34,500 nt of DNA, taken from the NCBI GenBank assembly GCA_040752415.1, contig JBFMGU010000107.1, forward strand, positions 1 to 34,500, written 5' to 3'. Every line of letters starts with the position of its first letter. Position 1 is the stretch's first letter. Positions 471 through 24,443 of this stretch are shown here, piece by piece. Under the pieces are notes generated by a model. The model made no database searches. It had not been told where the DNA came from and saw nothing but the letters and a program-made list of their open reading frames with translations. The position numbers and the translations under genes were made by a program. The DNA is from Myxococcota bacterium. GTDB taxonomy: Bacteria; Myxococcota; JACRCW01.

Positions 471-523
471 CGTCGGAACGCGATGATCGGGCGGCCGTTT
501 TTTGGTCCTCCCACCGCCGTCAT

Positions 524-532
524 TGCTAGCGT
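524..532 (+). promoter_or_regulatory. Putative extended -10 element (TG-c-TAGCGT), possibly a leaderless promoter for the giant TPR gene
   Basis: TGcTAGCGT ends 8 nt before ATG 541; no Shine-Dalgarno before that ATG. Confidence 0.35.
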
Positions 533-540
533 CCCGCCGA

Positions 541-9500: not shown

Positions 9501-12500
9501 TGGGCGGTCCCTGGGCCATGCTCCGGATGCCTCCGCACGCCAGTGGCTCATGGACGTGCTGCACGACCTCGCCGCCGCCACCGACGATCTTCCGCTGATG
9601 ACCTGCGTGCAGGCGTACCGGCAACCGCCGCGCACACCGGGCGAAGGCGACGCGCTGGGAGCACTGGAGCGTGACGCCGCGGAGCACGGTTTCCCCGCCA
9701 GTGCGCTCATGGGCCTCGTCTCCGCCGCCCGCGCCTCCCGCGAGCACGACCGACTCATCCGCTACCTCGAGACCTCACTCGCGCACGGGGAAGCGCGCCC
9801 CGGTCCCGCCCACCTGGAGCTGGCGGAGCTGCTCTCCTCGCCGGGGACGCTGAATCCCACCCGCGCGCTGCATCACGCCGAGAAGGCCTGTCAGCTGATG
9901 CCCACGGACCTGACGGCCGCGCGACTGCGTCTGCGCATGGGCCGCACGGTGCGGGACCCCAAGCGGCTGTGCGCGGCGCTGGTGCACGCGTCCCACCTGA
10001 GCGACGCCGAGGACACCATCCAGCTCACCCTCGAGGCCGCGGAGGTGATGGCCTCGCAGCTGGATCGTCCGCGGGATGCCCTGGCGCTGCTCCGCTCCCT
10101 GCGCGTCGACGATCCCACGATGGCGGAGCGCGTGTTTGACGCATCCATGCGCTATGCCCAGGACGCCGGCGACCCCGCGGGTGTGGCCGGGATGCTGGAG
10201 ACGCGCGCCGCCGGTGAATCCGACCCCGAGGCCCAGCTCGCGCGCGTGCGACAGGCCGCCGAGGCGTGGGTGAGCGCCGGTGAGGTGCAGCGCGCCGAGC
10301 AACTGCTCATCAAGACCGCGCGCGCGTCCCAGGCGGCGTGCACGTTCGTCGTCGAGACGGCGGTGGGATTGCGCAAGCCGGTGTTCGCGGTGGCGGCCCT
10401 CCGTGCACGGTTCACCACCGCGAACGTCGAGGAACGGCGAGAGCTGACGCATGCCTGGCTGGACCGCTTCTCGTCGCTGGAAGAGGACAAGGAGCCGCGC
10501 GCGGCAACGCGTGAGCTTGTCGAGCTGGTGCTGGCGGGCGACCCCGACGACATCATCTGCCAGTGGTGGCTCGCCGAGGACGCGCAGGCGGAGCATCGCT
10601 GGGAGGACGCGGCGGAACACTGGCGCGCGCTGGCCGAGCTCTCCACGCGTGAAGAGGTGCCCACGCACGTTGCGCAGTCGCTCCACACCGCCGGCGTGGC
10701 CGCCCTGGCCCGCAGCGACGTCATGGAGGAGGCGGAGCGCCTGGCCGCTGCGCAACTGGAGGCGAACCCTGCGGATCGCAGCGCGCTGGAAATCATGCTC
10801 GCTGCGGCCATGGGGCGTGCGGATGCCGCGCAGGTGGCGTCGTTGCTGCTCCGACTGGCGAGCCAGACCACCTCTCGCGAGGAAGCCGCCTGGGTGCTGC
10901 GTGAAGCGGCGGACTGGCTCAGCGGACCTCTCAATGACCCCGCGGGCGCCGCCGACGCATTGCGCAGCGCGGGCGCGTTCAAGCCCCTCTCCCCGTCGGA
11001 GAATGAGCGCCTCACCGAGCTTGCGCGTCGTGCGGGCGACACGGATGCGGAGCTGGAGGCGCTGCGCAAGTTGACCGCGGAGGATGGTCCCCAGACCGGT
11101 GCGCGCTTCCTCCGTCTCGCCGAGCTGCTGCGCGACCGCGCCCGCGACCCCGACGAGGAAATCACCGCGCTTCACCGCGCCCTGGCCTTCCCCGACGTGG
11201 CCGCATCCGCCGCCGCGCGCCTGGCCGAGCTGGCGTCGTCGGAGACGAGTCTTCTCCCCTGGCTCCTCGAGGCCGCGCCGCCCGCGTCGTCCCGCACCGC
11301 CGCGTGGAGTCGCGCCCTGACCCGGGTTGCCGCCGCCGAGGGGAACGCGGAAGTGGCCGGTGACGCCGCGCTGTGGCTCGCGGAACATGGCGAGTCTTCC
11401 GAGTGGGCCGTGGCGGCGCGCTGGCTGGCGAAGACGGAGCGTTCCGCGGATTCCGCGCGCGCGTACCAGAAGGCCGCGGAGAACGACGAGACCCAGCGCG
11501 CGACCTTCCTCACCGACGCCGTGGCTCAGTGGGAGCGCGCCAACGATCTCTCCGCCGCCGACGGCGCTCGCCTCGCGCTCCTCGAGCACGACCCGGGCAA
11601 CGTGGCCACGTTCGAGGCGCTGGAGCGTCGTTTCCGTCGGTCCGGGAAGCTGGAACAGCTCGCGGCACTCGCGCGCAAGGTGGCCATGGCGCAGCAGGAT
11701 GCCGGGAGCCGCGCGGGGCTGTTGGAACGGGCGGCCATCCTGATGCGCGACGGCACCGGCGACGAGAGCGGCGCCCTCCAGGCCTTCAGCGATTCCTACG
11801 CGGCGGACACCTCGCGTGTGAGCTGCGCGCTTGCCGTCTCCGACCTCCTCTTCCGTCGTGGCGACCTGGTGGAGGCGGGCCGTTGGCTGGAGCGCGTGCC
11901 CAGCGAGGTGGACCTCTCCGTCGTCAACATCTCCGCCGCGGAGCTGGCGTACCGTCGTGGCGCCGCGCGCGAGGCCGCCGGTGGCGACGGACGGGAGGAC
12001 TTCCGTCACGCCCTGGAGCTCAACCGCAATCACACCGTGGCTCGCGACGCGTTGGTGACGGCGTGCCAACGTCACGGTGATCCCCTGGGCGCCGCCAAGG
12101 CCCTGGCCACCGACGCGCACGAGCCGGACCCCGCCGTCGAGCCCGCCGCCTACGCGCGCTGGATCCTGGAGCAGGGCCGCTCCCTCACGAATGCTGGATT
12201 CCCCGCCGCGTCGACGTCGCTGCTGGAGGAGGCCTTCCATCGCCTGCCCGGCAGCGTGGAGCTGGGAAGCGCCCTGGTGGCGGCCACGCGTGACGAGGAG
12301 CCCGCTCGCGCGGCGCAGGTGCTGATGACGCTCGCTCGCACGGCGCCGGCGGGTCGTCGACGTGCCACGCTGTTCCTCGATGCCGTGGACGCGTGGCGTG
12401 ATGCTGGTCGTGCTGCCGACGCCGCGCGCGCCGCGGTGGCAGCCCACCAGGAGACCCCCGCGGACCTCTCCGTGCTCTGGGAAGCGCTCTCATCGGCCGC

Positions 12501-13917
12501 CGCCGCTGAGGATGACATCCTGATCCGCGACCTGGTGCGGGAGCTCCACGCGCTGGACCGCAAGCCGCTGCTGACCCCGGAGCTGCATCTCTCCGTCGCG
12601 CGCGCGTTGCGGCAGGACACCAAGGCGGAAGGCGCCACCCTGCTCTTCCACGCCGAGCGCGCGCTCGAGGCCGGTGATGACTGGCAGGTGCGCCTGCTCG
12701 CCGTGGAAGGTGCGCGCCGTGCGCCCGACCCCGAGGCGTTGCTCCGCCATGTCGACGCCGCCCTCCCCCTGGCGCCGGATGCACGCATGGCCAGCGCCCT
12801 GGCCGCCGAGGCGGGACGCGTGGCGTTGGACCTGCTGAAGGACAACGAGCGCGCCGTCAACATCGTCTACCGCGCGCACACGCTGGCGCCGCAGGACAAC
12901 ACGCTGAAGGCCATGCTCGCCGAGGCGTACTCCCGCGACCCCTTGCTCGCCGACCACGCGCTCATGGCCTCCACGCACCTCCTCGACGCTGACGCGGAGC
13001 TCCCCGGTGCGTTCCTGTGGATTGCGCGGGCGCGTGCGCACCAGAAGGACCTGCGTCGTGCGGCGCTGAGCGGGGAAGCGCACCGGTTGCTGGGCGGAAA
13101 GGCCACCCTCCCGGAGACCGTGCCCTGGCATGATCCTCGTCGTGGCGCGGACCGTGCGCTGGAGCTCGCCGTCGACGCGTCGTGGGCCGCGCCCGAGGGC
13201 TACAACCACGCGCTCGCCTCCCTCTACGCGCAGCTCTCCGGGGCGGTGCACCAGCTTCGCACGGTGACCTCCGTGGAGGCGCGTCCGCTGGCCGCCGACG
13301 AGGCGCGCGCGCTGGTGGGCGACGTGAGGTTCGCGCGGAGCATGGTGGGCTTCACGTTGCCCGTCGTGGCGGCGTCCGATCCTGGCGCGCACATCGTGGG
13401 GACCACGGCGCCGCAGCTGGCGGTGGGGCCAGACGTGTTCACGGCGCCGGAGGCCGTGCGTCGCGCGGTGCTCACGCTGGGGTTTGCCGCCGTGAACTGG
13501 GGCCTGGAGCCCGCGCTGGTCATGGGCGTTCCCGACGTCACGCGGCTCCGTCAGGCCGTCATGGCGGCCCTGGGCGTGGGCCATGAGAACCACCCGCGGC
13601 TCAAGGCGGAGTTGCAGCAGCTGCAGCGCGCGCTCCGGGGTCGTCCGCTGGAGGCGGCGCGCAACCTGGCGCAGGACCTGGTGAACCTGCCCGTCGAGAT
13701 GGATGCCCAGTGGCTCGCGCAGAGCCGCACGCTCCTGGCGCGCCTGGCGTTCCTGGCCGCGGGCAACCTGACCCATGCCATGGAGGCGCTGGCCGTCATG
13801 GAAGGTGGGCTCGCGCCGTCGCCACAGTCCGCGGAGGCGCTGCGCCTGATGCGCTGGGTCTGCCTGGGCGACGGCGTGGACGGTCGACGCCGGCTGGGGC
13901 TGGAGGAATACCGGTAG
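541..13917 (+). CDS. Giant tetratricopeptide-repeat (TPR) protein (~4458 aa), myxobacterial AgmK-like architecture
   Basis: Uninterrupted 13.4-kb ORF with strong GC3 bias; many degenerate TPR units (e.g. PDRALEALQHAFRADPDDDETVRLL, EPRRAVLCWRKALRLAP); distinct non-TPR N-terminal (~250 aa) and C-terminal (~250 aa) regions. ATG 541 preferred over TTG 502. Confidence 0.88.
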   Translation: MDRSAPSSGRPAGGQPPDRPRRLGFALRFAEGKALLLAKDLPVGDPGTTAADVSLDELALEVPNVRFPLDVTGGAERFQTRRLVVRKAALRASTGAIRALLQQGLVREGWSDLRVQLSAPQLELEAGLTRDGARRGRVLLRLAALPSPPSALDVVVTHAWVLGDAATTSLDAATAVLDALARGESAAGPLVRRLDVTRLAVRELLNSHGWKTPDFSSLREIQLVVETDGVRVVAASETPPTVEDALHQDRLARVLAASSLLVGWSAARGQMAQLRGLLDRVAVHPHALALVADLLMGDPLGREEALAALDEAISRHGETVDLLVARARLDRDDPKHWKRVLDWAQQQGDTALAHGAALAWAEGLPVERAEEALEAYRAASLARPDSGAVALGLAQVSVQAEQWAEAVRAARLAIQLGLSPVDEQVASRCLGLARMAMGDAPGGRRALLRALRHGEDTATLAALGQLSEADGKHGDAVRYRLRAAHAATDDVARAAEIAEAARLTHERLGDAVASVALWQQALALHRSTSWRAAAAKAAWAAGDAELTAQWALEDGGRAPESPELARLAGLALTRMGGREEETLLLLKRARTQDVTADVEVEEATALVRARMGDASGLLALEEKKARTAPAGPQRAEAIAALARQHLDDDALVVPATRLLLDAAQEEPTPARLDEAVAAIQALPVEDATGVIAQLWQESGVHHPVLTNPERARTLAGLWWTHNAQAARPLVTELRSRGALTATDWRAMAASARSQGVVDGEQLALEALAEDDTLNTDEALRLAEVLSSADETDAALKVLVPVALRDGGPAAERAAQLAEEVGQIDTALSVLTAAEQKAEGSAALAWARRARAAAALGERFEEAVAAARRAAALGTGDDADALEETLEVAGDLTALSDVLWERAKTELDVDRAVRAARLEMASGRAASGTVERLRESMEVGLVPNAALWRVLAEAAGSAHDGPTRGQALRATFDDETLPDRERLEAAESLVALELPSVDVAALDDELLASWPAHEPALARRTRREAHANPGAAADDALAVVDALAKRDAALVERLEWLRFAQENAALAEQSENEIKIIEQMLELARREPATAQQHGMDRRGLVLRLAALYEKAGNALEAVRVLSHAEALECPPAERALVFRRIALLEDQKLSRPDRALEALQHAFRADPDDDETVRLLMRTLDAQHRYRELATLHAQRAERGTGTARVAHLVAEGELWARKLGEPRRAVLCWRKALRLAPYSDAPLKHLQDLHRSRSPAAMVRTYLMAARLRGMPEAAPLLEEGGAMLAGLMDRPRMATVVFRAAASGSPPSSSALRALAEVYRALSRPEDAQAALRDLVAAAPDARSRAGARVARAEILAALHRWEDAWDELKAALGEQPQMVSALSLAVEATSRLGLVADYERLSRQRLLHVQDSHQVAEGAVAAGRELIRMMDLPAALRMARMAVEAEADNDDGWRLLLDASAQLSDAVSEAEALGTLSRIWESRDPEAAAGFLGRLAVLRLRSGKRDDAVMALRDALHRDPVAAAKALQSAWDAGLDVPSEIVVDAAEALRARSLSQAAFVLVGRAPDRRNPRLARLMLELGETTLSAEERADLQLLAVADMEAGEARASVLDEAAQFFWESGEKKRAIAAAEQAVQARATVERAGRAFVWAVSDRDWPVVERLAAQAPAESIADVGTELAAAGDLHLLPDVVLERWCEMHPTPMVALQERARRATQRGDADGVKRALTTILETARGTPEGDEAARKLATMSARAGDHEAAVTTSTAIHAPTAQDLLDRADWLSALERWDEELALVEKLLKRTAEVDESALCERAVELARDYLEEPARGVAPCRRWLELQPESRLARAALVELLEAAGNQADAAREVSAWAARQKGVEANALWRRATELARDSGDVSLYVSVAKRAHEVLQEPGSHAALTEALAGAGNVDAVAALAMERAETSGERAHWEEAARELQKIGQHDRAADAWLRAHPDLAPAPVEEEVRQALARAGRRAALADRVYNALDAHPTDVALRHRFLTLASRRQPERIVRAVLDLARLEPSANRSAQAALAALHVGRVADARMYSDEARGRGAPKAFLAQVSVALKPGTWRGARGGAVAPGWLDQGWLRGGVLPATVDVAARPAWVLRALERRATEEEQWTLAAAALSERVLRGEHFTEEDLGKRPWLGRPELVDTLQTLARYAPEAAEAACNLAQQSGPEALAAVARSWAESARSDAAAAQAWDRVAAACAELLDADGQRQALERAQARLATARRARELLQTAQASRDVDAQESLLRSLAQLEPRNAAHWHLERAHLLINLDQMGPAVEAIRAAGPEAELPASAWETVLRGAVLHHDEEVQLAALEALVNGPNEPLALAALHGKAGRWPQALKWTEVAAEEEASIDAVDWMRLEAAQASGDVAWSLRLLAGLAQRGSELARDQLLVLADGAEDAELALRCLTQADGGDVSSALARADAARRGEDVRGLAEALRDARARGVEPSAEALREEAEAWLDAEEDALAAEAALLLARQDANEWSWAQELANDVGGNTAITCADAWTQSQPADGRAWRARQKAHADVHGPAGEADVLEAWANASGDPAIMLEASDALRHAEENARSLKLLRRVAQCGQRALEDIARARLAERAATLGAQPGALDEILALISGAPSDLDLARRACAISEELGETAQAEAAWEVLARHGTGEEQARALMRVADIAHGRGDRSQERAWLRVLLRREPRSVQVHQRLAELEDGAQSLSHHAAVAALSEQRVEALRALRRRATELGADDWTAWAEGALVGAAKTLDVHSPLAEARARAEERTWGLAGAARSWAAAAERSPAAAEALVERAVSAANPEVHALQSALFRRGASGLAIGLWMQAEREWRRSTDADAAVDAWRAAEAYGLDVAPSPELAIVLSAASGNRAAREVVLARVVRDHAKPALRADAARALGVSASRPQDAARWWKTAYELGGRIEDARRAVEAMHRTGQLGGEAELVEKVGRSLGHAPDASARQWLMDVLHDLAAATDDLPLMTCVQAYRQPPRTPGEGDALGALERDAAEHGFPASALMGLVSAARASREHDRLIRYLETSLAHGEARPGPAHLELAELLSSPGTLNPTRALHHAEKACQLMPTDLTAARLRLRMGRTVRDPKRLCAALVHASHLSDAEDTIQLTLEAAEVMASQLDRPRDALALLRSLRVDDPTMAERVFDASMRYAQDAGDPAGVAGMLETRAAGESDPEAQLARVRQAAEAWVSAGEVQRAEQLLIKTARASQAACTFVVETAVGLRKPVFAVAALRARFTTANVEERRELTHAWLDRFSSLEEDKEPRAATRELVELVLAGDPDDIICQWWLAEDAQAEHRWEDAAEHWRALAELSTREEVPTHVAQSLHTAGVAALARSDVMEEAERLAAAQLEANPADRSALEIMLAAAMGRADAAQVASLLLRLASQTTSREEAAWVLREAADWLSGPLNDPAGAADALRSAGAFKPLSPSENERLTELARRAGDTDAELEALRKLTAEDGPQTGARFLRLAELLRDRARDPDEEITALHRALAFPDVAASAAARLAELASSETSLLPWLLEAAPPASSRTAAWSRALTRVAAAEGNAEVAGDAALWLAEHGESSEWAVAARWLAKTERSADSARAYQKAAENDETQRATFLTDAVAQWERANDLSAADGARLALLEHDPGNVATFEALERRFRRSGKLEQLAALARKVAMAQQDAGSRAGLLERAAILMRDGTGDESGALQAFSDSYAADTSRVSCALAVSDLLFRRGDLVEAGRWLERVPSEVDLSVVNISAAELAYRRGAAREAAGGDGREDFRHALELNRNHTVARDALVTACQRHGDPLGAAKALATDAHEPDPAVEPAAYARWILEQGRSLTNAGFPAASTSLLEEAFHRLPGSVELGSALVAATRDEEPARAAQVLMTLARTAPAGRRRATLFLDAVDAWRDAGRAADAARAAVAAHQETPADLSVLWEALSSAAAAEDDILIRDLVRELHALDRKPLLTPELHLSVARALRQDTKAEGATLLFHAERALEAGDDWQVRLLAVEGARRAPDPEALLRHVDAALPLAPDARMASALAAEAGRVALDLLKDNERAVNIVYRAHTLAPQDNTLKAMLAEAYSRDPLLADHALMASTHLLDADAELPGAFLWIARARAHQKDLRRAALSGEAHRLLGGKATLPETVPWHDPRRGADRALELAVDASWAAPEGYNHALASLYAQLSGAVHQLRTVTSVEARPLAADEARALVGDVRFARSMVGFTLPVVAASDPGAHIVGTTAPQLAVGPDVFTAPEAVRRAVLTLGFAAVNWGLEPALVMGVPDVTRLRQAVMAALGVGHENHPRLKAELQQLQRALRGRPLEAARNLAQDLVNLPVEMDAQWLAQSRTLLARLAFLAAGNLTHAMEALAVMEGGLAPSPQSAEALRLMRWVCLGDGVDGRRRLGLEEYR
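13870..13917 (+). repeat. Copy A1: last 15 codons + stop of the TPR gene (DGVDGRRRLGLEEYR*), repeated at 14573-14620
   Basis: Ungapped alignment to 14573-14620: 34/48 nt and 9/15 aa identical, stop at the same position. Confidence 0.8.
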
Positions 13918-13950
13918 AGGACACACCGCTGCCGCGCTAGAACGCAAGCC

Positions 13951-14562
13951 ATGGAGTCCGCGGGTCGCAAGCTGACCTACGAGGAGTACCTCGCGCTCGA
14001 GGAGGCTCTCGGCACCAAGCACGAGTTTCTCGACGGTCAGGTGCTGGACATGGCCGGCGGTTCCCCTCAGCACGCCGCGTTGTCGGCGCGCGTGACGGCT
14101 GCATTGTCACGCAACCTCGGAGCTGGGCCGTGCGTCGCCTTCAGCTCCGATCTCAAGCTCTTCGTCGCGGCGCGCAACCGCGCCACCTTTGCCGACGCTG
14201 TCGTCGTGTGCGGACCGCTGGTGCGGGCGGAGCATGACCGCAACGCGGTGACCAATCCCACGCTGATCGTGGAGGTGTTTTCCGACGCCACCGAGGCGGA
14301 GGATCGGGGCGAGAAGTTCGCGGGGTACGGCACGCTCCCGTCCTTCCGGGAGTATCTGCTGGTCGACCAGCATGACCCGTGCGTCGAGGTCTTCCGACGG
14401 AATGACGACGGCACCTGGACGCTGCAACGCCACGGCCCCGGCGACGTCGTTCGTTTGACCTCGGTGCCGGCCCAGTTCCCGGTGGATGAGCTGTATGCCG
14501 GGCTGGAGTTGGAGCCCCGGGTCCGCAAGCCCCGCCTGGTTCCGCACGCCGGTGAGGGCTGA
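13951..14562 (+). CDS. Uma2 family (DUF820) PD-(D/E)XK putative endonuclease
   Basis: Typical motifs: LTYEEYLALE, KHEFLDGQVLDMAGGSPQH, NPTLIVEVFS, DRGEKF..Y..LPSFREYLLVDQ, VEVFRR. Confidence 0.92.
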   Translation: MESAGRKLTYEEYLALEEALGTKHEFLDGQVLDMAGGSPQHAALSARVTAALSRNLGAGPCVAFSSDLKLFVAARNRATFADAVVVCGPLVRAEHDRNAVTNPTLIVEVFSDATEAEDRGEKFAGYGTLPSFREYLLVDQHDPCVEVFRRNDDGTWTLQRHGPGDVVRLTSVPAQFPVDELYAGLELEPRVRKPRLVPHAGEG

Positions 14563-14572
14563 CCCCCGCCGT

Positions 14573-14620
14573 CACGACGTGGAAACCCGCCGCGAGCTGC
14601 GGCTGGAGGAGTACCGCTGA
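14573..14620 (+). pseudogene. Copy A2: displaced, diverged 3'-end fragment of the TPR gene (HDVETRRELRLEEYR*)
   Basis: Intergenic, begins 10 nt after the Uma2 stop; matches the TPR C-terminus with synonymous changes (cga/cgc, gaa/gag, cgg/cgc, tag/tga). Confidence 0.75.
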
Positions 14621-14628
14621 CCTGCGGC

Positions 14629-14657
14629 TTGCCTGGGCCGGGAGAAGCCACTAGCAG
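14629..14657 (+). promoter_or_regulatory. Possible sigma70-like promoter (TTGCCT-17-TAGCAG) for the GT-C gene
   Basis: Exact 17-nt spacing, but the -10 match is weak. Confidence 0.25.
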
Positions 14658-14711
14658 CGGGGGCGGCGGAGCTTGCGCGTCCCGTGCCCTCCGCCCCAAG
14701 GTTCGCCCGCC

Positions 14712-16208
14712 GTGACGACGACCACCACCGACCCGACCGCGCAGTCCCCCAGCGAGCCGGGAGCCCCTCCGGCGACGACACCCCCGCCCCCGCCCGACGC
14801 TGGCGCACCGTTCGTGCCGCCCATCATGCCCCTGCCCCGTCGGACGGCGCGCGACCGCTGGCAGGACCTGCGCGCCGAGGGCCCGCTGATGATGCTGAGC
14901 TGGGCCGGCTTCCTCAGCCTCCTGGTGGCCGCGGTCATCCAACGCTGGTGGTTCATCTTCCGCATGCACGACCCGAAGAACTTCGTCTGGTCGGACATGG
15001 CGGGCTACGTGGACCGCGGCTGGCGACTGGCCGCGCCCAACATCACGCTCAACCGCTTTGACACGTTCTATCCGCCGGGCACGCACATCCTGATGGCGCC
15101 CCTCTTCCGTCTCGCCGGGAGCAAGGAAAAGGGGATGGAATACAACCAGTGGCTGTGGTGGGTGCTGGCGTTCGTCACCGTGTGGGCCGTGGGGTTCATT
15201 GCGCTGCGACTCTTCCGCCATCCGCTCGCCGGCGCGCTCGCCATGCTGGGGCTGATGCTGCACTGGCCCTTCACCATCTTCACCGGTTTCTTCATGAGCG
15301 AGAGCCCGTTTGCGTGCTTCATGGCGCTCTCGTTGCTCGTCGGGCTCATTGCGTATGACATGGATCCCGCGCGGCCGTGGCGTCGGGCGGGCGTGTACGC
15401 GGTGGCGGGTCTGATTGCCGGGATGGCCGCCACCATCCGCCCGCAGTTCGCCATTGGCGCCATGTTCATCGGCGTGCCGCTGCTCTCGCTGCGCTTCCCG
15501 TTCGTGCGCATCCGGGAGGCGGTGGCGCTGGCGTTGATGTTCATCCTCCCGTGCGTGGGCGCCATGCGGCTCAACAGCCACGCGGCGGGCATCAAGATGG
15601 GCATGAGCGGGAATGCTGGCTTCAACTTCTACCAGGGGCATTGCGACGTGGTTCACGTCGAGACGCACGAGAAGGGCGGCGGGAGCTGGTACGCGTTTGC
15701 GGCGCCGGTGCGCATCCAGCGCGTGAACAACGAGGGCAAGCCGGAAAAGAAGGTGGTCATCAAGGGCCACATGGCCTGGGAGAACGACTACTTCTTCGAC
15801 GAAGGCTTCAAGTGCATCAGGGAGGAAGGCTGGAAGCACCTGGAGCGCATCTACACCAACGTGGAAGACCTGTTCGCGCCCGCGGATCCCTGGCCGCCCA
15901 ACTCCGGTCGCTTCGCGAAGATCAGCAACTGGGCGAACAAGTCCTATTCGCACGGGCTGTTGTTCCTGCTGCCCTTCGTGGTGTTCCTGGCACGGTACCG
16001 TCGGCCGGAGCGGTGGTTGCTCATCCAGCTGGCCACGGTGCTGCCCGTGGGCTTCCTGTTCTACGGCGACAGCCGCTACCGCGTTCCGTACGACATGTTC
16101 GGGTTCATCATGCTCGCTGGCGTCATCGTGGCCATTCTCGGGATGCGTCGGGATGAGCGATGGGTGCCGAGCGTGGGATGGCGGAAACGCGCGCGTTCCG
16201 TTGGCTGA
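14712..16208 (+). CDS. Polytopic membrane protein, GT-C fold glycosyltransferase-like (ArnT/PMT/GT39-like)
   Basis: Multiple TM helices; SDMAGY after the first TM, FYPPG, ESPF, IRPQ, large periplasmic loop, C-terminal GDSRYRVP. Start uncertain (TTG 14673, GTG 14712, ATG 14826). Confidence 0.75.
   Translation: MTTTTTDPTAQSPSEPGAPPATTPPPPPDAGAPFVPPIMPLPRRTARDRWQDLRAEGPLMMLSWAGFLSLLVAAVIQRWWFIFRMHDPKNFVWSDMAGYVDRGWRLAAPNITLNRFDTFYPPGTHILMAPLFRLAGSKEKGMEYNQWLWWVLAFVTVWAVGFIALRLFRHPLAGALAMLGLMLHWPFTIFTGFFMSESPFACFMALSLLVGLIAYDMDPARPWRRAGVYAVAGLIAGMAATIRPQFAIGAMFIGVPLLSLRFPFVRIREAVALALMFILPCVGAMRLNSHAAGIKMGMSGNAGFNFYQGHCDVVHVETHEKGGGSWYAFAAPVRIQRVNNEGKPEKKVVIKGHMAWENDYFFDEGFKCIREEGWKHLERIYTNVEDLFAPADPWPPNSGRFAKISNWANKSYSHGLLFLLPFVVFLARYRRPERWLLIQLATVLPVGFLFYGDSRYRVPYDMFGFIMLAGVIVAILGMRRDERWVPSVGWRKRARSVG
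16146..16196 (+). repeat. Copy B1: near-terminal 17 codons of the GT-C gene (RRDERWVPSVGWRKRAR), repeated at 20337-20387
   Basis: Ungapped: 41/51 nt (32/36 over the first 12 codons) and 14/17 aa identical. Confidence 0.88.
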
Positions 16209-16254
16209 TCCTGTCGTCATCGCGGCACATCCGCGCCCGCTTCGGAGTTCGTCC

Positions 16255-16953
16255 ATGGGCCCGCGCAGCATCGAGGAATTGGTCGTCGCGGATTCCGCGT
16301 GGCCGGAGATGCGCAAAGCGCTGGAGGACGGCGGGGAACGCGTTGAGGTGTTGCCCGCCGGGCCCGGACGCGCTGAAGCAACGCTCCTGGCACTACAGGT
16401 GACAACACACTCGACTCTTGGCGCGTTGGCGTACCAGACGGGCGGAATTCTCATGGATGGGGGATGGGTTCGCCTCCTCGGTTCCGGACACCCGCGCCTC
16501 CCGCGCGATCTTGCGAGCTGGAACGGTCTTGGTGAACCACCAGCGAGGGTGCGCCAGTCAGGCGCGTTGCTGTTTGCTGACGACGTCCTCGGCGGTTTCT
16601 TCGCAATCAACGGCGGCGGGCTGCCGGGTCCAAGCAATCACGTGCTCTACCTCGCGCCAGACACCTTGGAGTGGGAGGAAACGGACCTGGGTTTCACCGA
16701 CTTCTTCTACTGGCTAACAGATGCCGACCGCATTGCGGGGTTCTACGGAGAGGATCGATGGGAGGGATGGAGGGCCGAGCTCTCGAACGTGTCAGGCAAT
16801 CAGGCCTTTTCCTTCTACCCACCCTTGTGGGTTTCTCCCGTGGACGCCGGCAGGAGACCCGCTGCGGGTGAACGCTCGCGGAAGGCGATCAGCGTCGACG
16901 AGGCTTGGCACTTGAACGCGCATCGCTATCCGCAACAACTCGGTCTCCGGTGA
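16255..16953 (+). CDS. DUF2625 family protein
   Basis: GGAG RBS before ATG 16255; family-like motifs LQVTTHSTLGALAYQTGGILMDGGWVRLLGSG, ADDVLGGFFAINGG, YLAPDTLEWE, FSFYPPLW; more A/T-ending codons than the flanking core genes. Confidence 0.85.
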   Translation: MGPRSIEELVVADSAWPEMRKALEDGGERVEVLPAGPGRAEATLLALQVTTHSTLGALAYQTGGILMDGGWVRLLGSGHPRLPRDLASWNGLGEPPARVRQSGALLFADDVLGGFFAINGGGLPGPSNHVLYLAPDTLEWEETDLGFTDFFYWLTDADRIAGFYGEDRWEGWRAELSNVSGNQAFSFYPPLWVSPVDAGRRPAAGERSRKAISVDEAWHLNAHRYPQQLGLR

Positions 16954-17091
16954 CCGGTGACCCGGTTGGGCCGAGCGTCCGTAACGACGACGACGACGCC
17001 GACCCGCTGCGCTCCTTCCCGTCCTCCTCGGCAGCGCGTGACGCCGCTGACGCGATGTAGGGTCCGTGGTGACCAGCCTCCTCCTCGCGGC

Positions 17092-17130
17092 GGGTTCCCG
17101 GTGAAAGCGGTGTGGACGCCACGGGAACCC
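17092..17130. other. Intergenic inverted repeat/hairpin (GGGTTCCCG...CGGGAACCC)
   Basis: Perfect 9-bp arms with additional inner pairing (GTG/CAC, GCG/CGC); no U-tract. Confidence 0.5.
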
Positions 17131-17252
17131 ACACGGCGTTCACTCGCCTTGCGTGAGAATGCTGATAGAGCGCGCGAGCCGATTCACGTCGGAGCGCCTT
17201 GACGCCCGCGCCAACGCATCGAATCGGCATTCCACGTGCACGCGGCTTGGCC

Positions 17253-18053
17253 ATGGCGTGGGGAACGCTCATCTCCGTTGGTTTGCTGGTGGCCTTGAAG
17301 GCGAGTGAGCCAGCCCCCCCGGCGGTGGGCGCCTCTCCAATGGCCGCCACGAAGTGCGTTGAGCATCGCGAACGCATCGGTCACGTCGGTGGGATCCTCA
17401 GCGGTGTCGGTGCGGCGTTGGGCGTCAACTTACTGCTGGCGGCGTCGGCGTTGGCGGGTGGGTGGGTCGCCTGGACGACGCTGATTGCCTGGGAGGCCGG
17501 CATCTCCCCCGCCAGAATGGGGCCGGCGACGTTGGCATGGGCGTCCTTCCTGGGTTTCGGCTTCGCGCTGCTCAGCGCCGCGGCGTTCGTCCTCCTCTCC
17601 GCGCCGTTGATGCTCGCCAACGTCTTCGGGGGCGACTTGGCGGGATGGCTGGTGGGAACGCAGCTGCGCCGGCCGAGCCCACGCAGAGGAGTAGCGGCAT
17701 TCGCGGCTGTGGTTCCCGAGCTCCTCGTCGTCGCGCCGCTGGCGGTGGCGCCCGCAGTCCCCTTCCTCGCGGTTTCGGCAGGCGCGCTGGTTGCCGCCCC
17801 GGCACTGGCCCGGATGGTTCCGCCCCCGGGCTGGTGGGGCTTGGCCGTCCTCATCTGGTTGAGTCTGTACGCGGCCTTCTTCGGGACGATCGTGTTGCTG
17901 TCATCGTCCTACTACCTCGTCTACGGCTTCGTTGTTGCCGTCGTCGCAGCGGCTCTTCTGACCGTGCTGCGGGCAGGCAGCTGGTTCGCGCGCTACTGGG
18001 CCTACGTGCGTCTCCGCGACGTCCTTCCCGGGAAAGGAGGCCCCTGTCCATGA
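17253..18053 (+). CDS. Hypothetical integral membrane protein
   Basis: Signal-like N-terminus and several long hydrophobic segments; its stop overlaps the next start (ATGA, 18050-18053). Start uncertain (TTG 17199 or ATG 17253). Confidence 0.7.
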   Translation: MAWGTLISVGLLVALKASEPAPPAVGASPMAATKCVEHRERIGHVGGILSGVGAALGVNLLLAASALAGGWVAWTTLIAWEAGISPARMGPATLAWASFLGFGFALLSAAAFVLLSAPLMLANVFGGDLAGWLVGTQLRRPSPRRGVAAFAAVVPELLVVAPLAVAPAVPFLAVSAGALVAAPALARMVPPPGWWGLAVLIWLSLYAAFFGTIVLLSSSYYLVYGFVVAVVAAALLTVLRAGSWFARYWAYVRLRDVLPGKGGPCP

Positions 18054-19954
18054 CGGAGTCCACCCTGCAGAAGGTGTTCGTGCTGCTCGCGCTGTCGTTT
18101 CCCGTCGGGTGTGGCCGCCCACCGGCTCCCGGCTCGGCGCCGCCGAGTTCGACCGTTGCCGTGTTGGACGACGGAACGGTCCTCGCGCTCGACGCCGACC
18201 ACGACGCGCTGGTGTTCGTGAGCGGCGTGGAGGTTGCGGCACGCGTACCTACCGGGCCCGGCCCCGCGCAGCTGACCCGTCGTGGCGACCGGGTCGTGGT
18301 CACCAATGCGCGCGGCCGGAGCATCTCCGTGTTCTCCGTGTCCCAGCGCGCCGCGGTGGCCACGCACGTGGTGGGCGTGGAGCCTGCCGGGGTGGCGTTT
18401 GTCGACGATACGCACGTGGTGGTGGCGCTCCACGCCGAGCGGGCGCTGGCGCTGGTGGACCTGGACCGCGGGTCGGTGGTCGACCGGGTCCTGCTCCCGG
18501 CCGACGAGCCGTATGGACTGGCAATGCTGGAGGGCAACCGGCTCGTCGTCACCCACCGTCGCGGCGGGCGCCTCTCGGTACTCGACCCGGCGCTAACGCG
18601 GGATAAGCGCTTCGACCCTCGCCCCGCGGCGCAGTCGACGATGCTCCTCGATCGCTTGCCGGCGTCGGACCGCGCGGGACAGACGTGGCGAGCCAACGGC
18701 CAGGGCGTACCCACCATCCTGCCCCTCGGCGCGGGCGTGGCGTTGGTGCACACGCACCTCCCCGACAGCAACCTTGCCGACGGAAGACCGTCGCCATCCG
18801 TCTTCACCACCGCCGGGTACTACGCGCGACCGCAGGACGATGATCGCATCCGGCCAGGCCTCAGCGTCGTGGATCTGCGCTTCCCGAACGCCCCGGCCTA
18901 CGGGGGACCCATTGTCCCGGGGGAGGGGCGGACCTTCTGTGACCAGCAGATGAGCGACCCCGTCGCGGCGGTCTACCTCGACGGTGGTGCGGGAATGGCG
19001 ATGGTGGGACGCGGCTCCCGGAACGTGGTGATGTGGCCGGTGGGAGACGCGCTGAGGCCCTTCAAGCACGGCAGCGCCCCGACGGCGGTGGCCCCCGTTG
19101 GGCACGGCGCGGACGGTGTGGCGCTTTCCCCGGATGGTGCTCACCTCTATGTGCACAACAGCGCGGACCTGACGCTGACCCGGATCCGGGTGCCGTCTTT
19201 CGTCCCCGGGTCCGCCACCTATGACTGCGCGGCAGTGGGATTTCCCCAGGTTCAGCCCACGGTCACCATCCCGCTCGCCGAGGTGACGCTGGAGCCGGCG
19301 CAAGCCCTGGGCCGGCGGCTGTTCCACGACGGAACCCTTCCCACCATGACGTCGTCGGAAGGCGTCACCTGCGCCACCTGCCACATCGACGGGCGCCACG
19401 ACGGCCGCACCTGGCAGACACCCTTCGGCCCTCGCAACACGCCGTCCCTGGCGGGCGCCGCGGAGGGGCGCGTGGGGATCGCCACCACCACCGCACCTCT
19501 CCACTGGTTGGGAGAAGTCACCACCCACCGCGACCTCAACCTGACCGTGACCCGGGTCATGGGCGGCGTGGGACTGGACGACGAGCAATTGGACGCGCTG
19601 GCGGCGTACATCGATATCCTGCCCGCGCCGGACAGCGCAACGGCGGCGGATGATGCGCTGGCCTCGCAGCGCGCCCGTGGGGCTGTGCTCTTCCACGACC
19701 CGGAGGTGGGATGCGCCAGCTGCCACGTCGGCGAGCACCATACCGACAACCTGGCGCACCCGGAGCTGGGGCTTCCGTTCCAGACGCCGGTGCTGCACGG
19801 CGTGGGGCGGACCGCGCCCTATTTCCACGACGGAAGCGTGGCCACGCTGGAGAACGTGATCACCGACTGGGTGCGCACGGACCGCATGGGCCACGGATCC
19901 CACCTTGACGACGAGGATCTCGATGCGCTGCTCTGCTACCTGCGCTCCCTGTGA
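18050..19954 (+). CDS. Lipoprotein with YVTN/YncE-like beta-propeller fused to a di-heme cytochrome c (CcP/MauG superfamily-like) domain
   Basis: GGAGG RBS and ATGA coupling; lipobox-like FPVGC; propeller motifs (VPTGPGPAQL, VGVEPAGVAF, VGHGADGVALSPDG); two CxxCH (CATCH 19370-19384, CASCH 19712-19726); RNTPSL, PLHW, TPVLHGVGRTAPYFHDGS. The ORF extension back to 17462 is not the real start. Confidence 0.88.
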   Translation: MTESTLQKVFVLLALSFPVGCGRPPAPGSAPPSSTVAVLDDGTVLALDADHDALVFVSGVEVAARVPTGPGPAQLTRRGDRVVVTNARGRSISVFSVSQRAAVATHVVGVEPAGVAFVDDTHVVVALHAERALALVDLDRGSVVDRVLLPADEPYGLAMLEGNRLVVTHRRGGRLSVLDPALTRDKRFDPRPAAQSTMLLDRLPASDRAGQTWRANGQGVPTILPLGAGVALVHTHLPDSNLADGRPSPSVFTTAGYYARPQDDDRIRPGLSVVDLRFPNAPAYGGPIVPGEGRTFCDQQMSDPVAAVYLDGGAGMAMVGRGSRNVVMWPVGDALRPFKHGSAPTAVAPVGHGADGVALSPDGAHLYVHNSADLTLTRIRVPSFVPGSATYDCAAVGFPQVQPTVTIPLAEVTLEPAQALGRRLFHDGTLPTMTSSEGVTCATCHIDGRHDGRTWQTPFGPRNTPSLAGAAEGRVGIATTTAPLHWLGEVTTHRDLNLTVTRVMGGVGLDDEQLDALAAYIDILPAPDSATAADDALASQRARGAVLFHDPEVGCASCHVGEHHTDNLAHPELGLPFQTPVLHGVGRTAPYFHDGSVATLENVITDWVRTDRMGHGSHLDDEDLDALLCYLRSL

Positions 19955-19997
19955 CGCGCCGTCCGCCGGGTGGTGGCGGCGTCTGGGAATCTGCATC

Positions 19998-20195
19998 ATG
20001 GCGGTGCTGTCGCTCGCCTGTGGTCGCGGGGGCTACCGGGATCCCTGCCTCTCCGACGAGGTGTGCGATCACGGCCTCCACTGCGCGGTCGACGCTGGCG
20101 GGGTCTGTACGCGGCCCTGCGTCTCCCACGAGGACTGTCCGGCCGGCTTTCCCGTCGAGGCGCCCGCCGAGTGCGCGGGTGGCTACTGCCGGTAG
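19998..20195 (+). CDS. Small Cys-rich putative lipoprotein
   Basis: LSLAC lipobox followed by 8 Cys in ~50 aa (two CxxxxxC-type modules); GC3-biased. Start uncertain (ATG 19923 or 19998). Confidence 0.6.
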   Translation: MAVLSLACGRGGYRDPCLSDEVCDHGLHCAVDAGGVCTRPCVSHEDCPAGFPVEAPAECAGGYCR

Positions 20196-20312
20196 CTCCC
20201 GTGGCCCTGTCACCAGCCTCTCGGGGTCGTATTGCCCATGTGGCAGGCGTAGCGGCCCGCCTATCACACCAATGTGGAAGACCTCATCGTTCCCGCCGAC
20301 CTTGGCCGCCGA

Positions 20313-20327
20313 ATTAGATTAGATTAG
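20313..20327. repeat. (ATTAG)x3 micro-tandem repeat
   Basis: attagattagattag; AT-rich in a GC-rich context; gives stop codons in all six frames. Confidence 0.85.
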
Positions 20328-20336
20328 AGGGCAGAG

Positions 20337-20387
20337 CGGCGGGATGAGCGGTGGGTGCCGAGCCTGGGGTGGAGAATGCGCAGGCGT
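20337..20387 (+). pseudogene. Copy B2: displaced, diverged 3'-end fragment of the GT-C gene (RRDERWVPSLGWRMRRR)
   Basis: Intergenic, 4191 nt downstream of copy B1; of 4 mismatches in the first 36 nt, 3 are synonymous and 1 is V/L. Confidence 0.82.
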
Positions 20388-20462: not shown

Positions 20463-21212
20463 CTACTCCGCACAGGGCTGGTCGTTCTTGTTGCCGCAAA
20501 CCGTGACACCGCCGCTGAACCCCAGCTCCTGCTGGGCCTGGACGAACGCCTGGGCCTCGGAAGCCTCAAGCTGCGGGTTCTTGGTGATCACAATGGAGGT
20601 GCCAGCCCTGAACTCCGCCGGGAGCGCGAGGTGCGTAAGGTCTGGGTTCTCAGCAACTTCCAGGAAATCCGCGTTGCGAAGCGCCCCGAACGCCGACAGG
20701 TCAGCAAGTTGGCCGTTCATCTTGACTCGCAATGTCCCGATGCTTTGCAGCGTCGGGAACTCGAGGAGCGTGAGGCGGCTGTTTCGGTACAGGTCCAGCT
20801 TCGTCAAGGTGGTCCTGTTCGACGAGAGCTTCCGAATACCGGGCGAATCAAACCCGGACACCGCAATCTCCTCAGCGTGCAGGTCCCCCAGCTTGAGCTC
20901 TTCAGCCTCCGTCTCGTCCAGCGTGAAGTGCTCGATGGACGAAACCGACGAGAGAGCATCGAGATCGTTTAACAGGTCGTTTTGCCTGATTAGCATCCCA
21001 GGAGCGGTGCGGAGCCCGATGAGCGCGTCCAAGCTCTGAAGGGATGTCTCCTCGATCGTAACCCAACAGGAGACTTCACCCAGTTCAGCCAGCCTCTTCA
21101 GATCTTGTTCCGTCTTCGGAACACAAACCGACCCGCTGGTGTTCGGGGCTCCGAAGCACGCACCCAACACCACGAGCGCCCCAAACAACGTGGCCGAGGC
21201 AAAGGTAGTCAC
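20463..21212 (-). CDS. Putative lipoprotein with receptor L-domain/LRR-like repeats
   Basis: Signal and lipobox VVLGAC; repeats such as LLIRQNDLLNDLDALSSVSSI, LDLYRNSRLTLLEFPTLQSIG, LRVKMNGQLADLSAFGALRNA; C-terminal VTVCGN; atypical lower-GC codon use. ORF is open to 21407; GTG 21212 chosen from the signal peptide position. Confidence 0.72.
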   Translation of the reverse strand: MTTFASATLFGALVVLGACFGAPNTSGSVCVPKTEQDLKRLAELGEVSCWVTIEETSLQSLDALIGLRTAPGMLIRQNDLLNDLDALSSVSSIEHFTLDETEAEELKLGDLHAEEIAVSGFDSPGIRKLSSNRTTLTKLDLYRNSRLTLLEFPTLQSIGTLRVKMNGQLADLSAFGALRNADFLEVAENPDLTHLALPAEFRAGTSIVITKNPQLEASEAQAFVQAQQELGFSGGVTVCGNKNDQPCAE

Positions 21213-21648
21213 ACGGCTCAAACGGTTTCGCCTTCTGCGATTGAAGAGTTTCTCGTGGTACCGCCCCTGCTGCACCAGCGCGCCCAACGTCTCCCCCCCG
21301 CCCATTCGCGCCAACCGCTCCTCGACAATCGCCATGTTCCGCCATGCCCACGCCTTGGCGGGCGTTTTGATGAGGCGCAGCCTGCTCCCCAATCGGTCGC
21401 GTGACAAGGGAGAACCCCGCGGTCGGTCGGCTGGCCGATGCGCTTCGGCCTTTCTTCATCCGCGCAAGCAGTTCGCCCAGCTTCGCTGTTGAGCCGAATC
21501 AGTGGCTTACGTTGCCCAGGCATCCCGGCAGACCGCGCCCCAACCGCAGCGCGCCCACTTCACCACTGCTCGACGACCGCTCCACCAACGCCCGCCGAGC
21601 GACGACAGAGCGCTGCACCGGCGCCAGCGGACCACCATCCGCACCCGC

Positions 21649-23205
21649 TCACCTCGCGGGGCCCGCGACACCCGGCTTCAATCTCACCGTCATCAACCTC
21701 GCCGCTCCCTCGTGATGCGCCAGCCACATCACCATGGGCGCTTCGTCGACGAGGAAGAACCGGTACGCGTACACCTCTCCCGGGTCGCGCTCCAACCGGA
21801 ACGGCGCCTGCAACTCGACGCCCATCGCATCCAGCACCACCACGTCCAGCGCGTCCGCGAAGCGCACCACCGGCACCGCCGTCATGATGCCCCGCAGCAC
21901 CCACGTCTCCTGCCCCACGGCCAGCACCGGCGAGTCCGTGGTGAACACCGGGGCGCGCGCAATGACGGTGGGCTCCCCCACGGGCCGTCCCGTGTCGTCG
22001 AGGGGAAGGAACAGCTGACGCGCCTGCACGTAACCCGCGTACTCCGTGTAGACCAGCTTCGCGTCCTGGCCACTCCATGCCACGCGCGGGAATCCCAGGT
22101 GCGGCCCCGGCAACACGTGCACCCGCTCGACGTTTCCCGCGCGCGTCACCGCCGTGAGCTCAATGGAGAGGTCCGGTCCCGTCGTGGCGGCCACCAGGTA
22201 GCGGTCACCGGCAAAGACACCGTCATAATCCGGGTGCCCGAATCCCGCCTCGAACAGCGCGTTGGTTAGTGGAGGTTCGCCTATCCATCGGATTTCGCCG
22301 CGGGGGCCGAAGATGGCCGCGCGCAGACCGTTCTCGTGGTCCGACCACAGGGCCAGCACGTCGCTGCCGTCACCCGCAATGAGCTCCACGCTGCGCGCGC
22401 CGGGAATCCGCGTGCCCCCGTTGAAGACCTCGCCGTCAACGCTGATCCACGCCGTCACCAGGTCCGACTGCTCAATCCACGCCGTCAGCCAGCCGCCATC
22501 CACCGTGGCAATGCCCACGTCACGCAGGTCACCGGTGACCAGGCACGTGTTTGTTCGTGGGGTGAGGTCTGGAGCAAGCACCACGACTTCGGCGGCGCGG
22601 TCTCCCGGCAGTTGCACGTTGGGATAGCCCAGGGGGTCGAACAGCGGGTCGTTGTAGAGGAGAACCACGGCAATGTCGGAGCCCAGGGCCGCGGCATCCA
22701 GGTAGCCCGCGGTGGCCACATGCGCGGCCTGCACCATCCCGCAAGACGCCACGCGCGGAAGCTCGACGCAGCTGCCGCACTCCCTCGTCTCCAACGTGCA
22801 CGCGGAAGTGCAGCGCACCGGCCCGTCGGTGAACCCCAGCTCCGCGCACGACGCGGTGGGGAGCGCGTCCGTGTCGCAGACCTCGCTGAAGCGGTCGCAG
22901 ACATCGTTGTCGCAGATCTCACACGAGTCGACGACGCCGTTGCCGCACCTTCCCGCGCACAGGGGTTGACCGGTCTGCAGTGCTTCCGGGCACGTCACCC
23001 CGACGACACCGCCCGAGGTGCTGGTGGTGGTGCCCACGCCGCCGGTGGAGGAAGAGCTGGAGGAGCTGCTGGATGACGACGACGTCGCCGCGCCGCCCGT
23101 GGTCACCCCGCCCGTGGTGGTGCCGCCTTCGGTCGGCGCGGCGGGCAAACAGCCGAGGACGCCAACCAAGCCCAGCAGGACCCCCGCGCGCAGCACGCTC
23201 TCCAT
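21649..23205 (-). CDS. Putative lipoprotein with Ser/Thr/Gly linker, myxobacterial Cys-rich repeat and beta-rich C-terminal domain
   Basis: GGGAG RBS; lipobox VLGC; poly-Ser/Thr linker; CGNGVVDSCEICD...EVCD...SCAELGF..G..RC...C. Confidence 0.8.
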   Translation of the reverse strand: MESVLRAGVLLGLVGVLGCLPAAPTEGGTTTGGVTTGGAATSSSSSSSSSSSSTGGVGTTTSTSGGVVGVTCPEALQTGQPLCAGRCGNGVVDSCEICDNDVCDRFSEVCDTDALPTASCAELGFTDGPVRCTSACTLETRECGSCVELPRVASCGMVQAAHVATAGYLDAAALGSDIAVVLLYNDPLFDPLGYPNVQLPGDRAAEVVVLAPDLTPRTNTCLVTGDLRDVGIATVDGGWLTAWIEQSDLVTAWISVDGEVFNGGTRIPGARSVELIAGDGSDVLALWSDHENGLRAAIFGPRGEIRWIGEPPLTNALFEAGFGHPDYDGVFAGDRYLVAATTGPDLSIELTAVTRAGNVERVHVLPGPHLGFPRVAWSGQDAKLVYTEYAGYVQARQLFLPLDDTGRPVGEPTVIARAPVFTTDSPVLAVGQETWVLRGIMTAVPVVRFADALDVVVLDAMGVELQAPFRLERDPGEVYAYRFFLVDEAPMVMWLAHHEGAARLMTVRLKPGVAGPAR

Positions 23206-23341
23206 GACGCTCCCGTCCGCGGTGCGACGCGCATGGGTCGCCCGCGTGAAACCGGGTGCTGAGCGATAACGAGGTGCCTGGGCATTCCGCAGGAACGGGT
23301 GGCGGGTTGCGCGGACAACGTGACGACGACGCCGTGGTTCG

Positions 23342-24442: not shown

Positions 24443-24443
24443 G

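Follow-up and report, generated by a model that had tools for sequence, protein, structure and literature searches.

The window analyzed here, a 34.5-kb stretch of DNA from a Myxococcota bacterium, is the entire contig C10 of assembly G000 (11.0 Mb, 520 contigs, 68.9% G+C, 4.3% contamination). It carries two adjacent blocks of accessory genes, each lying between the 3′ end of an intact gene and a second, orphan copy of that same gene end (Table 1). The only cargo of block 1 is a gene of the Uma2 nuclease family, bracketed by the end of a gene for a giant repeat protein of 4471 amino acids (aa), the TPR-like gene; block 2 holds four genes bracketed by the end of a gene for a polytopic membrane protein, the GT-C-like gene. 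Both brackets had been proposed in a preliminary description of the sequence and both were borne out by alignment, the remnant at the second proving larger than stated there. The labels it gave to the two host genes hold loosely: all Pfam matches of the giant protein to TPR or ARM families were weak and below threshold, and Pfam and NCBIfam searches with the GT-C-like protein gave no match, but Atlas grouped it with PMT_2/ArnT-like clusters (feature score 0.99, TM 0.66-0.70).

In bracket 1, positions 13871-13913 and 14574-14616 are identical at 33 of 43 nucleotides (nt; 77%), with at most 10 nt matching in an unbroken run, and both copies have an in-frame stop codon at the same position, TAG in the gene and TGA in copy B. 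Copy B begins 11 nt past the Uma2 stop codon, in a frame different from that of Uma2, and the cargo between the copies measures 660 nt (13914-14573). The alignment score of this pair, 18.0, was attained by about 0.2% of 506 cross-paired Uma2 flanks; in the three controls of the genome scan described below, scores of ≥18 were reached by 6-19 of 6379 genes. The ortholog of the TPR-like protein in G001, a genome of the same family (40% identity across 452 aa at the C-terminal end), terminates in ...RQRLGLEEAAGA, and the bracket 1 motif is therefore the native C-terminus of this protein, not a piece of Uma2. A remnant of an Uma2 N-terminus was considered as the source, the Uma2 start RKLTYEEY resembling both copies, but this resemblance covers just 18 of 25 nt and does not extend. 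It was dismissed given the longer match between copies A and B, their co-located stops, and the conservation of the motif in the G001 ortholog.

Bracket 2 consists of two collinear blocks, 15853-15886 versus 20266-20299 (28 of 34 nt identical) and 16145-16196 versus 20336-20387 (42 of 52 nt identical), which at 81-82% identity together represent about 350 nt of the gene end. Between them, about 239 nt of the gene have been swapped in the remnant for 20 nt, a net internal loss of about 220 nt. The replacement (20313-20335) is low in GC and unlike its surroundings, contains three tandem TTAGA units, and may be filler DNA left by end joining. The last four codons of the live GT-C-like gene (16197-16208) have no counterpart in the remnant, and this tail would therefore have been supplied by the edge of the insert, which is about 4.06 kb long. 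At both window blocks the homology stops at the gene end, with no extension on either side. The longest identical runs across the bracket repeats are 10, 11, and 12 nt; decay could have erased a shared core.

Table 1. Features of the window that bear on the two bracketed blocks.
Feature	Position	Strand	Basis
Giant 4471-aa repeat protein, TPR-like, host of bracket 1	502..13917	+	Open reading frame (ORF)
Copy A of TPR-like gene end, within live gene	13871..13913	+	Translation ...GVDGRRRLGLEEYR, then stop
Uma2-family PD-(D/E)XK nuclease gene, only cargo of block 1	13951..14562	+	Pfam PF05685, E=2e-29
Copy B, orphan diverged TPR-like gene end with own TGA stop	14574..14620	+	Reads ...DVETRRELRLEEYR, then stop
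Polytopic membrane protein, 511 aa, GT-C-like (PMT_2/ArnT-like), host of bracket 2	14673..16208	+	Atlas placement
Live-gene stretch (copy A) matching the GT-C-like remnant	about 15847..16196	+	Alignment
Block 2, cargo gene 1: DUF2625 protein	16153..16953	+	Pfam PF10946, E=1.1e-65
Block 2, cargo gene 2: 284-aa ORF, no Pfam/NCBIfam match	17199..18053	+	Frame plot of G+C at third codon positions (GC3)
Block 2, cargo gene 3: di-heme cytochrome c peroxidase/MauG-like	about 18050..19954	+	Pfam, NCBIfam, frame plot
Block 2, cargo gene 4: small Cys-rich protein, 68 aa, lipoprotein-like start	19989..20195	+	Sequence
Orphan remnant of GT-C-like gene end	about 20260..20387	+	Alignment
Remnant, block 1	about 20260..20315
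Remnant, 20-nt filler with (TTAGA)3	about 20316..20335
Remnant, block 2	20336..20387
Two genes between remnant and syntenic anchor: 314 aa LRR-like, 518 aa unknown	20463..23205	-
MlaD-domain gene, synteny anchor	23341..24550	-	Pfam MlaD, E=2.7e-12

Copies of gene ends recur throughout this genome. We called 6834 genes by a crude GC3 rule, which misses low-GC3 genes, and for 6379 of them compared the terminal 78 nt by alignment with the following 6 kb of the same strand, using the opposite strand, the reversed query, and another gene's downstream region as controls. At a score of ≥20, 49 genes had a same-strand match, compared with 7, 1, and 3 in the respective controls, and at ≥18 the counts were 67 versus 19, 6, and 14; the genome-wide excess that the preliminary description had proposed as a check is thus present. 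Inspection by eye of the 67 genes at ≥18 left 22 with orphan copies restricted to the gene end, three of which are doubtful (C178, C2, and C190), the rest being tandem paralogs or nearby self-overlaps. An independent BLAST self-comparison of all contigs yielded 21 genes with a 3′-end copy and 31 with an orphan copy of the 5′ region, in either case mostly outside called genes; the 5′ window was looser than the 3′ window, so these two counts are not strictly comparable. Given the copies of 5′ regions, the process is not specific to the 3′ ends with which the preliminary description had dealt. The orphan pairs form a graded series, with 99% identity at the top (98 and 107 nt), 96% below it (201 nt), and 77% at the lower end, as would be expected of copies that begin alike and then decay; in several of the young pairs the duplication stops exactly at the stop codon. 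Larger local duplications reach into the flanks in some cases (C477, a further 297 nt at 91%; C495, 182 nt at 97%; C55, 160 nt at 88%).

The bracketed cargo is diverse. Besides the second Uma2 gene discussed below, it includes a subtilase, a trypsin-like protease with a TetR regulator, a molybdopterin oxidoreductase with a ferredoxin, ArsR with AHSA1/SRPBCC, a histidine kinase with DJ-1, a multicopper oxidase with a P-type ATPase, proteins of the DUF7079, DUF1801/OmdA, NHL, and SH3 families, and a DUF4143 fragment. Pfam searches recovered no integrase, transposase, or resolvase among 39 cargo ORFs at 19 loci, nor any recombinase family among 13 ORFs of the window region, and contig C10 has no match to PF00589 (tyrosine recombinase) or PF00665 (rve). 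Elsewhere in the genome there are nine PF00589 matches on eight other contigs and a single PF00665 match on C518, none of them on an event-bearing contig. No Rfam family matched positions 12000-24000 at E ≤ 0.1, a tRNA search in and near the two blocks was empty, no terminal inverted repeat was among the repeats listed at the block ends, and no end motif or terminal inverted repeat shared among the 19 junction sets was seen by eye. As far as these searches extend, the absence of a recombinase noted at the outset holds.

The differences between live and orphan copies were distributed almost evenly over codon positions. Across the 22 orphan pairs they numbered 82, 75, and 104 at positions 1, 2, and 3, and without the long or gapped pairs on C178 and C2 they numbered 40, 41, and 45 (45 of 126 versus one third, p = 0.32); by codon, 60 were synonymous and 123 non-synonymous. 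About 30% of the differences over the orphan pairs were synonymous. The TPR-like pair, with 3, 3, and 4 differences (two synonymous and five non-synonymous codons), follows the same pattern. The GT-C-like pair is skewed, with 4, 3, and 11 differences over 100 aligned nt (p = 0.014 versus a uniform spread), but this is compatible (p = 0.21) with a model of one freely decaying copy and a live copy that changes at silent sites only, under which about 49% of the differences would fall at third positions. The skew thus fits a dead copy decaying beside a constrained live one. The enrichment for synonymous changes from which the preliminary description had argued that both versions were once translated was accordingly absent from the pooled data, and the argument itself does not follow, a dead copy beside a constrained live copy yielding third-position bias too; such a bias, seen when a live gene end is compared with its orphan, does not establish that both were translated. 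A ratio of non-synonymous to synonymous change (dN/dS) near 1 had been named there as an outcome that would speak against its own reading, and the flat, about 30% synonymous differences are that outcome.

We also polarized the differences in the GT-C-like pair with three relatives (L036, L037, and L038). Nine changes fell on the remnant and none on the resident copy, and nine were ambiguous; at the second Uma2 case, on contig C51, 19 fell on the orphan and nine on the gene. The motif RRDERWVPS is common to the remnant and the resident GT-C-like gene and absent from the other 21 homologs whose C-termini were compared, and this shared derived motif makes the remnant and the resident end close kin. 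It is possible that the donor was near-identical to the recipient.

Relatives of the two host genes are distant. GT-C-like orthologs share 60-75% aa identity, and no GT-C-like homolog above 75% was present in scans of metagenomes and genomes or in a protein search of 5.8 billion proteins. At the closest locus, L038 (74% aa), the GT-C-like gene is followed directly by a convergent homolog of the MlaD-domain gene (ORF 1159-2127 on the minus strand, 61% identical to window positions 23341-24550 over 322 aa, E=6.5e-132), and the whole 16.2-23.3 kb stretch is therefore missing there. We also looked near 20.4 kb for a remnant of the MlaD gene end in mirror image, from which the L038 junction could be reconstructed, but found none (score 13 versus 10.5-12 in controls). 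In G001, the gene next to the TPR-like ortholog is convergent and there is no Uma2. L038 thus has a single GT-C-like end and G001 a single TPR-like end, both relatives being distant and their flanks different. The empty-site comparison proposed earlier gave a locus without the 16.2-23.3 kb stretch in L038 but no empty site at the species level, the closest homolog being at 75% aa.

In three other relatives (L036, L037, and L041), the GT-C-like gene lies beside a conserved upstream cluster of four genes (413-, 352-, 1089-, and 194-aa proteins), with differing downstream neighbors. This genome has the same cluster at C1:84565-91634 without a GT-C-like gene, which implies that the GT-C-like gene has been relocated; a candidate GT-C-like remnant in that neighborhood was rejected, its score of 15.5 lying among the null scores (11.5-17). 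The TPR-like and GT-C-like genes are adjacent in no relative, so the ancestral order suggested previously (TPR-like end, promoter, GT-C-like gene) found no counterpart.

Uma2 was over-represented among the cargo. The genome encodes 23 Uma2 genes, two of which stand alone inside brackets, namely the window gene and C51:22644-23078, the latter in the opposite orientation, flanked by the end of a gene for a 710-aa protein and by a 142-nt copy of that end (about 84% identity). The 19 cargo intervals thus hold 2 of the 23 Uma2 genes, versus 18 of the remaining 6811 called genes (post hoc Fisher test, p = 0.002). No Uma2 gene follows the C51 host gene's ortholog in G001, and the closest homolog found for the window Uma2 protein, at 49% aa identity, is also in G001. 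At 61 Uma2 loci surveyed in 12 other genomes of the phylum, high scores came mostly from tandem Uma2 pairs and left one clean bracket, on contig C126 of G001 (L095, 1-2600; copies at 1129-1249 and 2247-2368 on the reverse strand), in which a lone Uma2 gene is bracketed by a 121-nt copy of about 92% identity. The host gene there, an NHL-repeat gene in a sister genus, has its live last six codons from the insert and an orphan end with a 1-nt insertion; its best homolog in this genome reaches just 30%. An apparent 18-mer bracket around an Uma2 gene on C21 (score 15.5) was discarded as a chance match, both copies lying inside unrelated genes.

Of the four cargos shorter than 1 kb, two carry Uma2 and one DUF4143, all three being domains of the PD-(D/E)XK superfamily. 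The DUF4143 cargo, 804 nt at C202:5348-6151, holds this domain alone in a 206-aa frame. DUF4143 normally lies downstream of an AAA ATPase domain, and this insert looks like a gene fragment, not a working cassette. Adjacent tandem pairs of Uma2 genes were frequent in other genomes (G001:C139:43346-44442, G001:C15:22275-23719, G019:C40:7581-8764, and G010:C44:12432-13583), and G001 carries 34 Uma2 copies in 6.4 Mb. According to the sections available of the respective papers, Uma2 and DUF4143 both belong to the PD-(D/E)XK superfamily and Uma2 shows signs of mobility in gamma-proteobacteria (PMC3424549), with copy numbers that vary among strains (PMC9403480, PMC9716671); in those sections of the literature found, these three papers included, no activity is given for Uma2 proteins.

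We consider that both blocks are probably insertions with long target duplication, made by host recombination or repair, whose downstream copies have since decayed. We infer from the observations above that the blocks were inserted and are not ancestral, and likewise the order of events and the enzymes involved. The incoming DNA would have entered at the upstream gene's 3′ end, placing the gene end on both sides of the insert, with a duplicated length of 43 nt at the TPR-like gene and about 350 nt at the GT-C-like gene. The upstream copy would have remained in the live gene, the final four GT-C-like codons and stop coming from the insert edge, and the downstream copy would be a dead, decaying remnant that at the GT-C-like gene has also lost the approximately 220 nt. 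The joining was most likely carried out by the cell's own recombination and repair, with no dedicated recombinase. It may have taken the form of a single crossover of a circularized piece carrying the gene end (Campbell type), or linear DNA from a near-identical relative may have been spliced in by one homologous and one illegitimate join, as in the route of the preliminary description but minus its diverged allele; the evidence does not discriminate between these possibilities. Campbell-type insertion-duplication, in which circular DNA with a segment of homology enters by a single crossover, is routine with non-replicating plasmids in Myxococcus genetics. As at the window blocks, one segment is then directly duplicated around the insert, the gene is kept whole if the segment spans the stop codon, and host recombination suffices, but a circular intermediate and enough identity for RecA are needed, for which 43 nt is short.

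Insertion with long target duplication is said to have been reported in Gene by Nobusato et al. in 2000. The footprint has thus been known since that year, and both window blocks fit it, save for the type of cargo and the conspecific empty site. The available text of a later study (Furuta, Abe & Kobayashi 2010, NAR, PMC2853133) describes restriction-modification units of <20 kb flanked by direct repeats of >30 bp (46 to ~420 bp), with no other mobile element and with the repeat in single copy in conspecific empty sites, some repeats overlapping the 3′ end of a neighboring gene; double-strand breakage is suggested there as the common cause, and that text gives no mechanism. On this account the route is not the under-described one that had been supposed. 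The window repeats, at 43 nt and about 350 nt, likewise exceed 30 bp, and the inserts of 660 nt and about 4.06 kb are below 20 kb with no mobile-element gene found. Unlike those units, block 1 is a lone Uma2 gene without a methyltransferase and block 2 lacks a restriction and modification pair; the cargo of this genome as a whole is mostly unrelated to restriction (oxidoreductases, regulators, proteases) and its copies are old and decayed. Such cargo argues for a general host repair route, not a property of restriction genes.

Several observations weigh against insertion with long target duplication as the explanation of the two blocks. With the closest homolog at just 75%, the insertion is read across a wide evolutionary gap, and the relatives differ among themselves downstream of the GT-C-like gene. 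The relocation of this gene, combined with the unseen adjacency to the TPR-like gene, means that the history includes at least one rearrangement beyond two insertions. The TPR-like pair is short (43 nt, 77%), and its mismatched stop codons, TAG and TGA, fit two once-functional ends or a boundary just before the stop. The third-position excess in the GT-C-like pair stands (p = 0.014), and duplications that end exactly at a stop codon are not explained by a random staggered break. Finally, mobility genes may lie in unassembled parts of this 520-contig, 4.3% contaminated assembly.

Some of these points also speak for the process originally proposed, in which a diverged foreign allele of the gene end recombined into the gene together with its cargo, the native end was pushed downstream, and both ends diverged while translated. 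Third positions account for 11 of the 18 differences in the GT-C-like pair, the TPR-like and C477 pairs keep the position of the stop with different stop codons, and the live copy at C51 has nine changes of its own. An arrangement of this kind has precedents: orphan tips of Rhs and CdiA proteins are displaced older toxin ends, and effector-immunity arrays of the Vibrio cholerae type VI secretion system (T6SS) undergo displacement by homology-facilitated illegitimate recombination, according to the portion of PMC5361080 available. There too the resident end gives way to an incoming one that brings its downstream genes, and older ends or immunity genes persist downstream, all without a recombinase, but the window hosts have no Rhs, CdiA, or T6SS family match, no immunity gene is among the cargo, and the copies have the look of decay, not of alternative functional tips. 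The third-position excess is compatible with one dead copy, the pooled differences are flat, and the nine polarized GT-C-like changes all lie on the remnant, with a resident end that agrees with the relatives. RRDERWVPS, found in both copies and in no relative, would require a donor that was very close kin, and we therefore regard a diverged allele as an unlikely source. Insertion could be dispensed with altogether if a local duplication, segmental or tandem, had been followed by differential loss, the cargo then being ancestral and the remnant deriving from a second gene copy. This reading draws on the C477, C495, and C55 events, which extend into the flanks, and on the GT-C-like remnant, which shows that deletions act at the locus; it needs more steps and leaves to be explained the absence of the whole stretch from L038 and the confinement of homology at the window blocks to the gene end on both sides, and seems to us very improbable.

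An equally improbable origin is in site-specific elements now decayed, each integrated by an integrase at an attachment site in a gene's 3′ end and carrying a replacement end, with the integrase gene lost or located elsewhere. Known integrative elements, such as tRNA-gene islands and e14 in icd, regenerate the 3′ end of the gene they target. They too leave a live gene whose end the element supplies, then cargo, then the displaced orphan end, an anatomy like that of the window blocks, and several of the duplications in this genome end at or near the stop codon. In contrast to such elements, the event contigs have no tyrosine recombinase or rve gene and the 39 cargo ORFs no integrase; no attachment core shared by the repeats is evident today, and the cargos, which can be as small as 660 nt with a single gene, have neither a common end motif nor terminal inverted repeats; repeats range from about 30 to 350 nt, and 5′ counterparts exist. 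Integron cassettes, which end in an attC hairpin and have an IntI integrase nearby, also differ from the window blocks, for which the searches gave no integrase, no listed terminal inverted repeat, and no Rfam match (E ≤ 0.1). For block 1 alone, the Uma2 gene might itself be the agent, a selfish unit that produces or takes advantage of breaks at the ends of genes and becomes captured there together with a long duplication, as has been proposed for restriction-modification units. Free-standing homing endonuclease genes in fungal mitochondria have a duplicated host-gene 3′ end, and like them Uma2 lies just past its host gene with the displaced end beyond; unlike them, the TPR-like pair (3, 3, and 4 differences) has no synonymous recoding of the element-borne copy, and Uma2 is a predicted PD-(D/E)XK nuclease that is not known to home. 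Support for such an agent could be seen in the post hoc excess of Uma2 in brackets (2 of 23 versus 18 of 6811), the third case on G001:C126, the predominance of PD-(D/E)XK domains in the smallest cargos, the C51 host ortholog without Uma2, and the reported mobility in gamma-proteobacteria (PMC3424549, as available). Most brackets contain no nuclease, so that one in cis is not needed; the three bracketed Uma2 genes are mutually distant and occur in either orientation, and with tandem pairs excluded a bracket was present at only 1 of the 61 loci elsewhere. Considering also that the literature found attributes no activity to any Uma2 protein in its available sections, we think it decidedly unlikely that the nuclease would have driven its own insertion.

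How genes without mobility machinery enter bacterial chromosomes is only partly understood, and in this one genome the footprint occurs about 20 times at 3′ ends, with a similar number at 5′ ends. The excess of lone Uma2 genes among the smallest cargos is a testable lead on a large family without known function. A bolder conjecture, to which we give little credence, is that Uma2 and perhaps other lone PD-(D/E)XK genes might be cassettes that spread themselves by break-and-capture with long target duplication at gene ends, and that the same route, possibly fed by the 23 Uma2 nucleases in trans, might provide a general, recombinase-free means of accessory gain at both ends of genes.

Some loci elsewhere in the genome are of interest in their own right. 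Contig C279 (55 kb) has three separate gene-end brackets (2515-7222, 15494-20991, and 38855-45647), two of them near-identical (98 nt at 99% and 201 nt at 96%) and ending exactly at the stop codon; the cargo is a DUF7151-subtilase in one case, a protease and a TetR regulator in another, and a histidine kinase and a DJ-1 protein in the third. Mirror-image 5′ scars were found at C161 (13919-14174 and 15943-16198) and C401 (27367-27645 and 29566-29838), where copies of 256-279 nt at 93-97% identity comprise a gene start and its upstream region and lie 1.8-1.9 kb farther upstream.

In the window itself, the Uma2 gene has a genome-like GC3 of 0.85 and the Cys-rich gene, which matched no curated family, a GC3 of 0.87; the DUF2625 gene, at 0.71, falls under the 5th percentile of called genes (0.80). 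The frame of the 284-aa ORF is supported by the GC3 frame plot across 17300-17950. The start of the di-heme peroxidase/MauG-like gene is approximate, the frame being open from 17462, and its product matched CCP_MauG, Cytochrom_C, and RoxA-like families in Pfam and MbnH/MauG-like families in NCBIfam. Apart from distant paralogs of this peroxidase-like gene, nothing in the cargo of either window block occurs a second time in the genome. There are at least seven such paralogs, at 31-43% aa identity, and they are spread over at least seven other contigs, among them C204, C148, C182, C506, C487, and C116, with two in tandem on C204.

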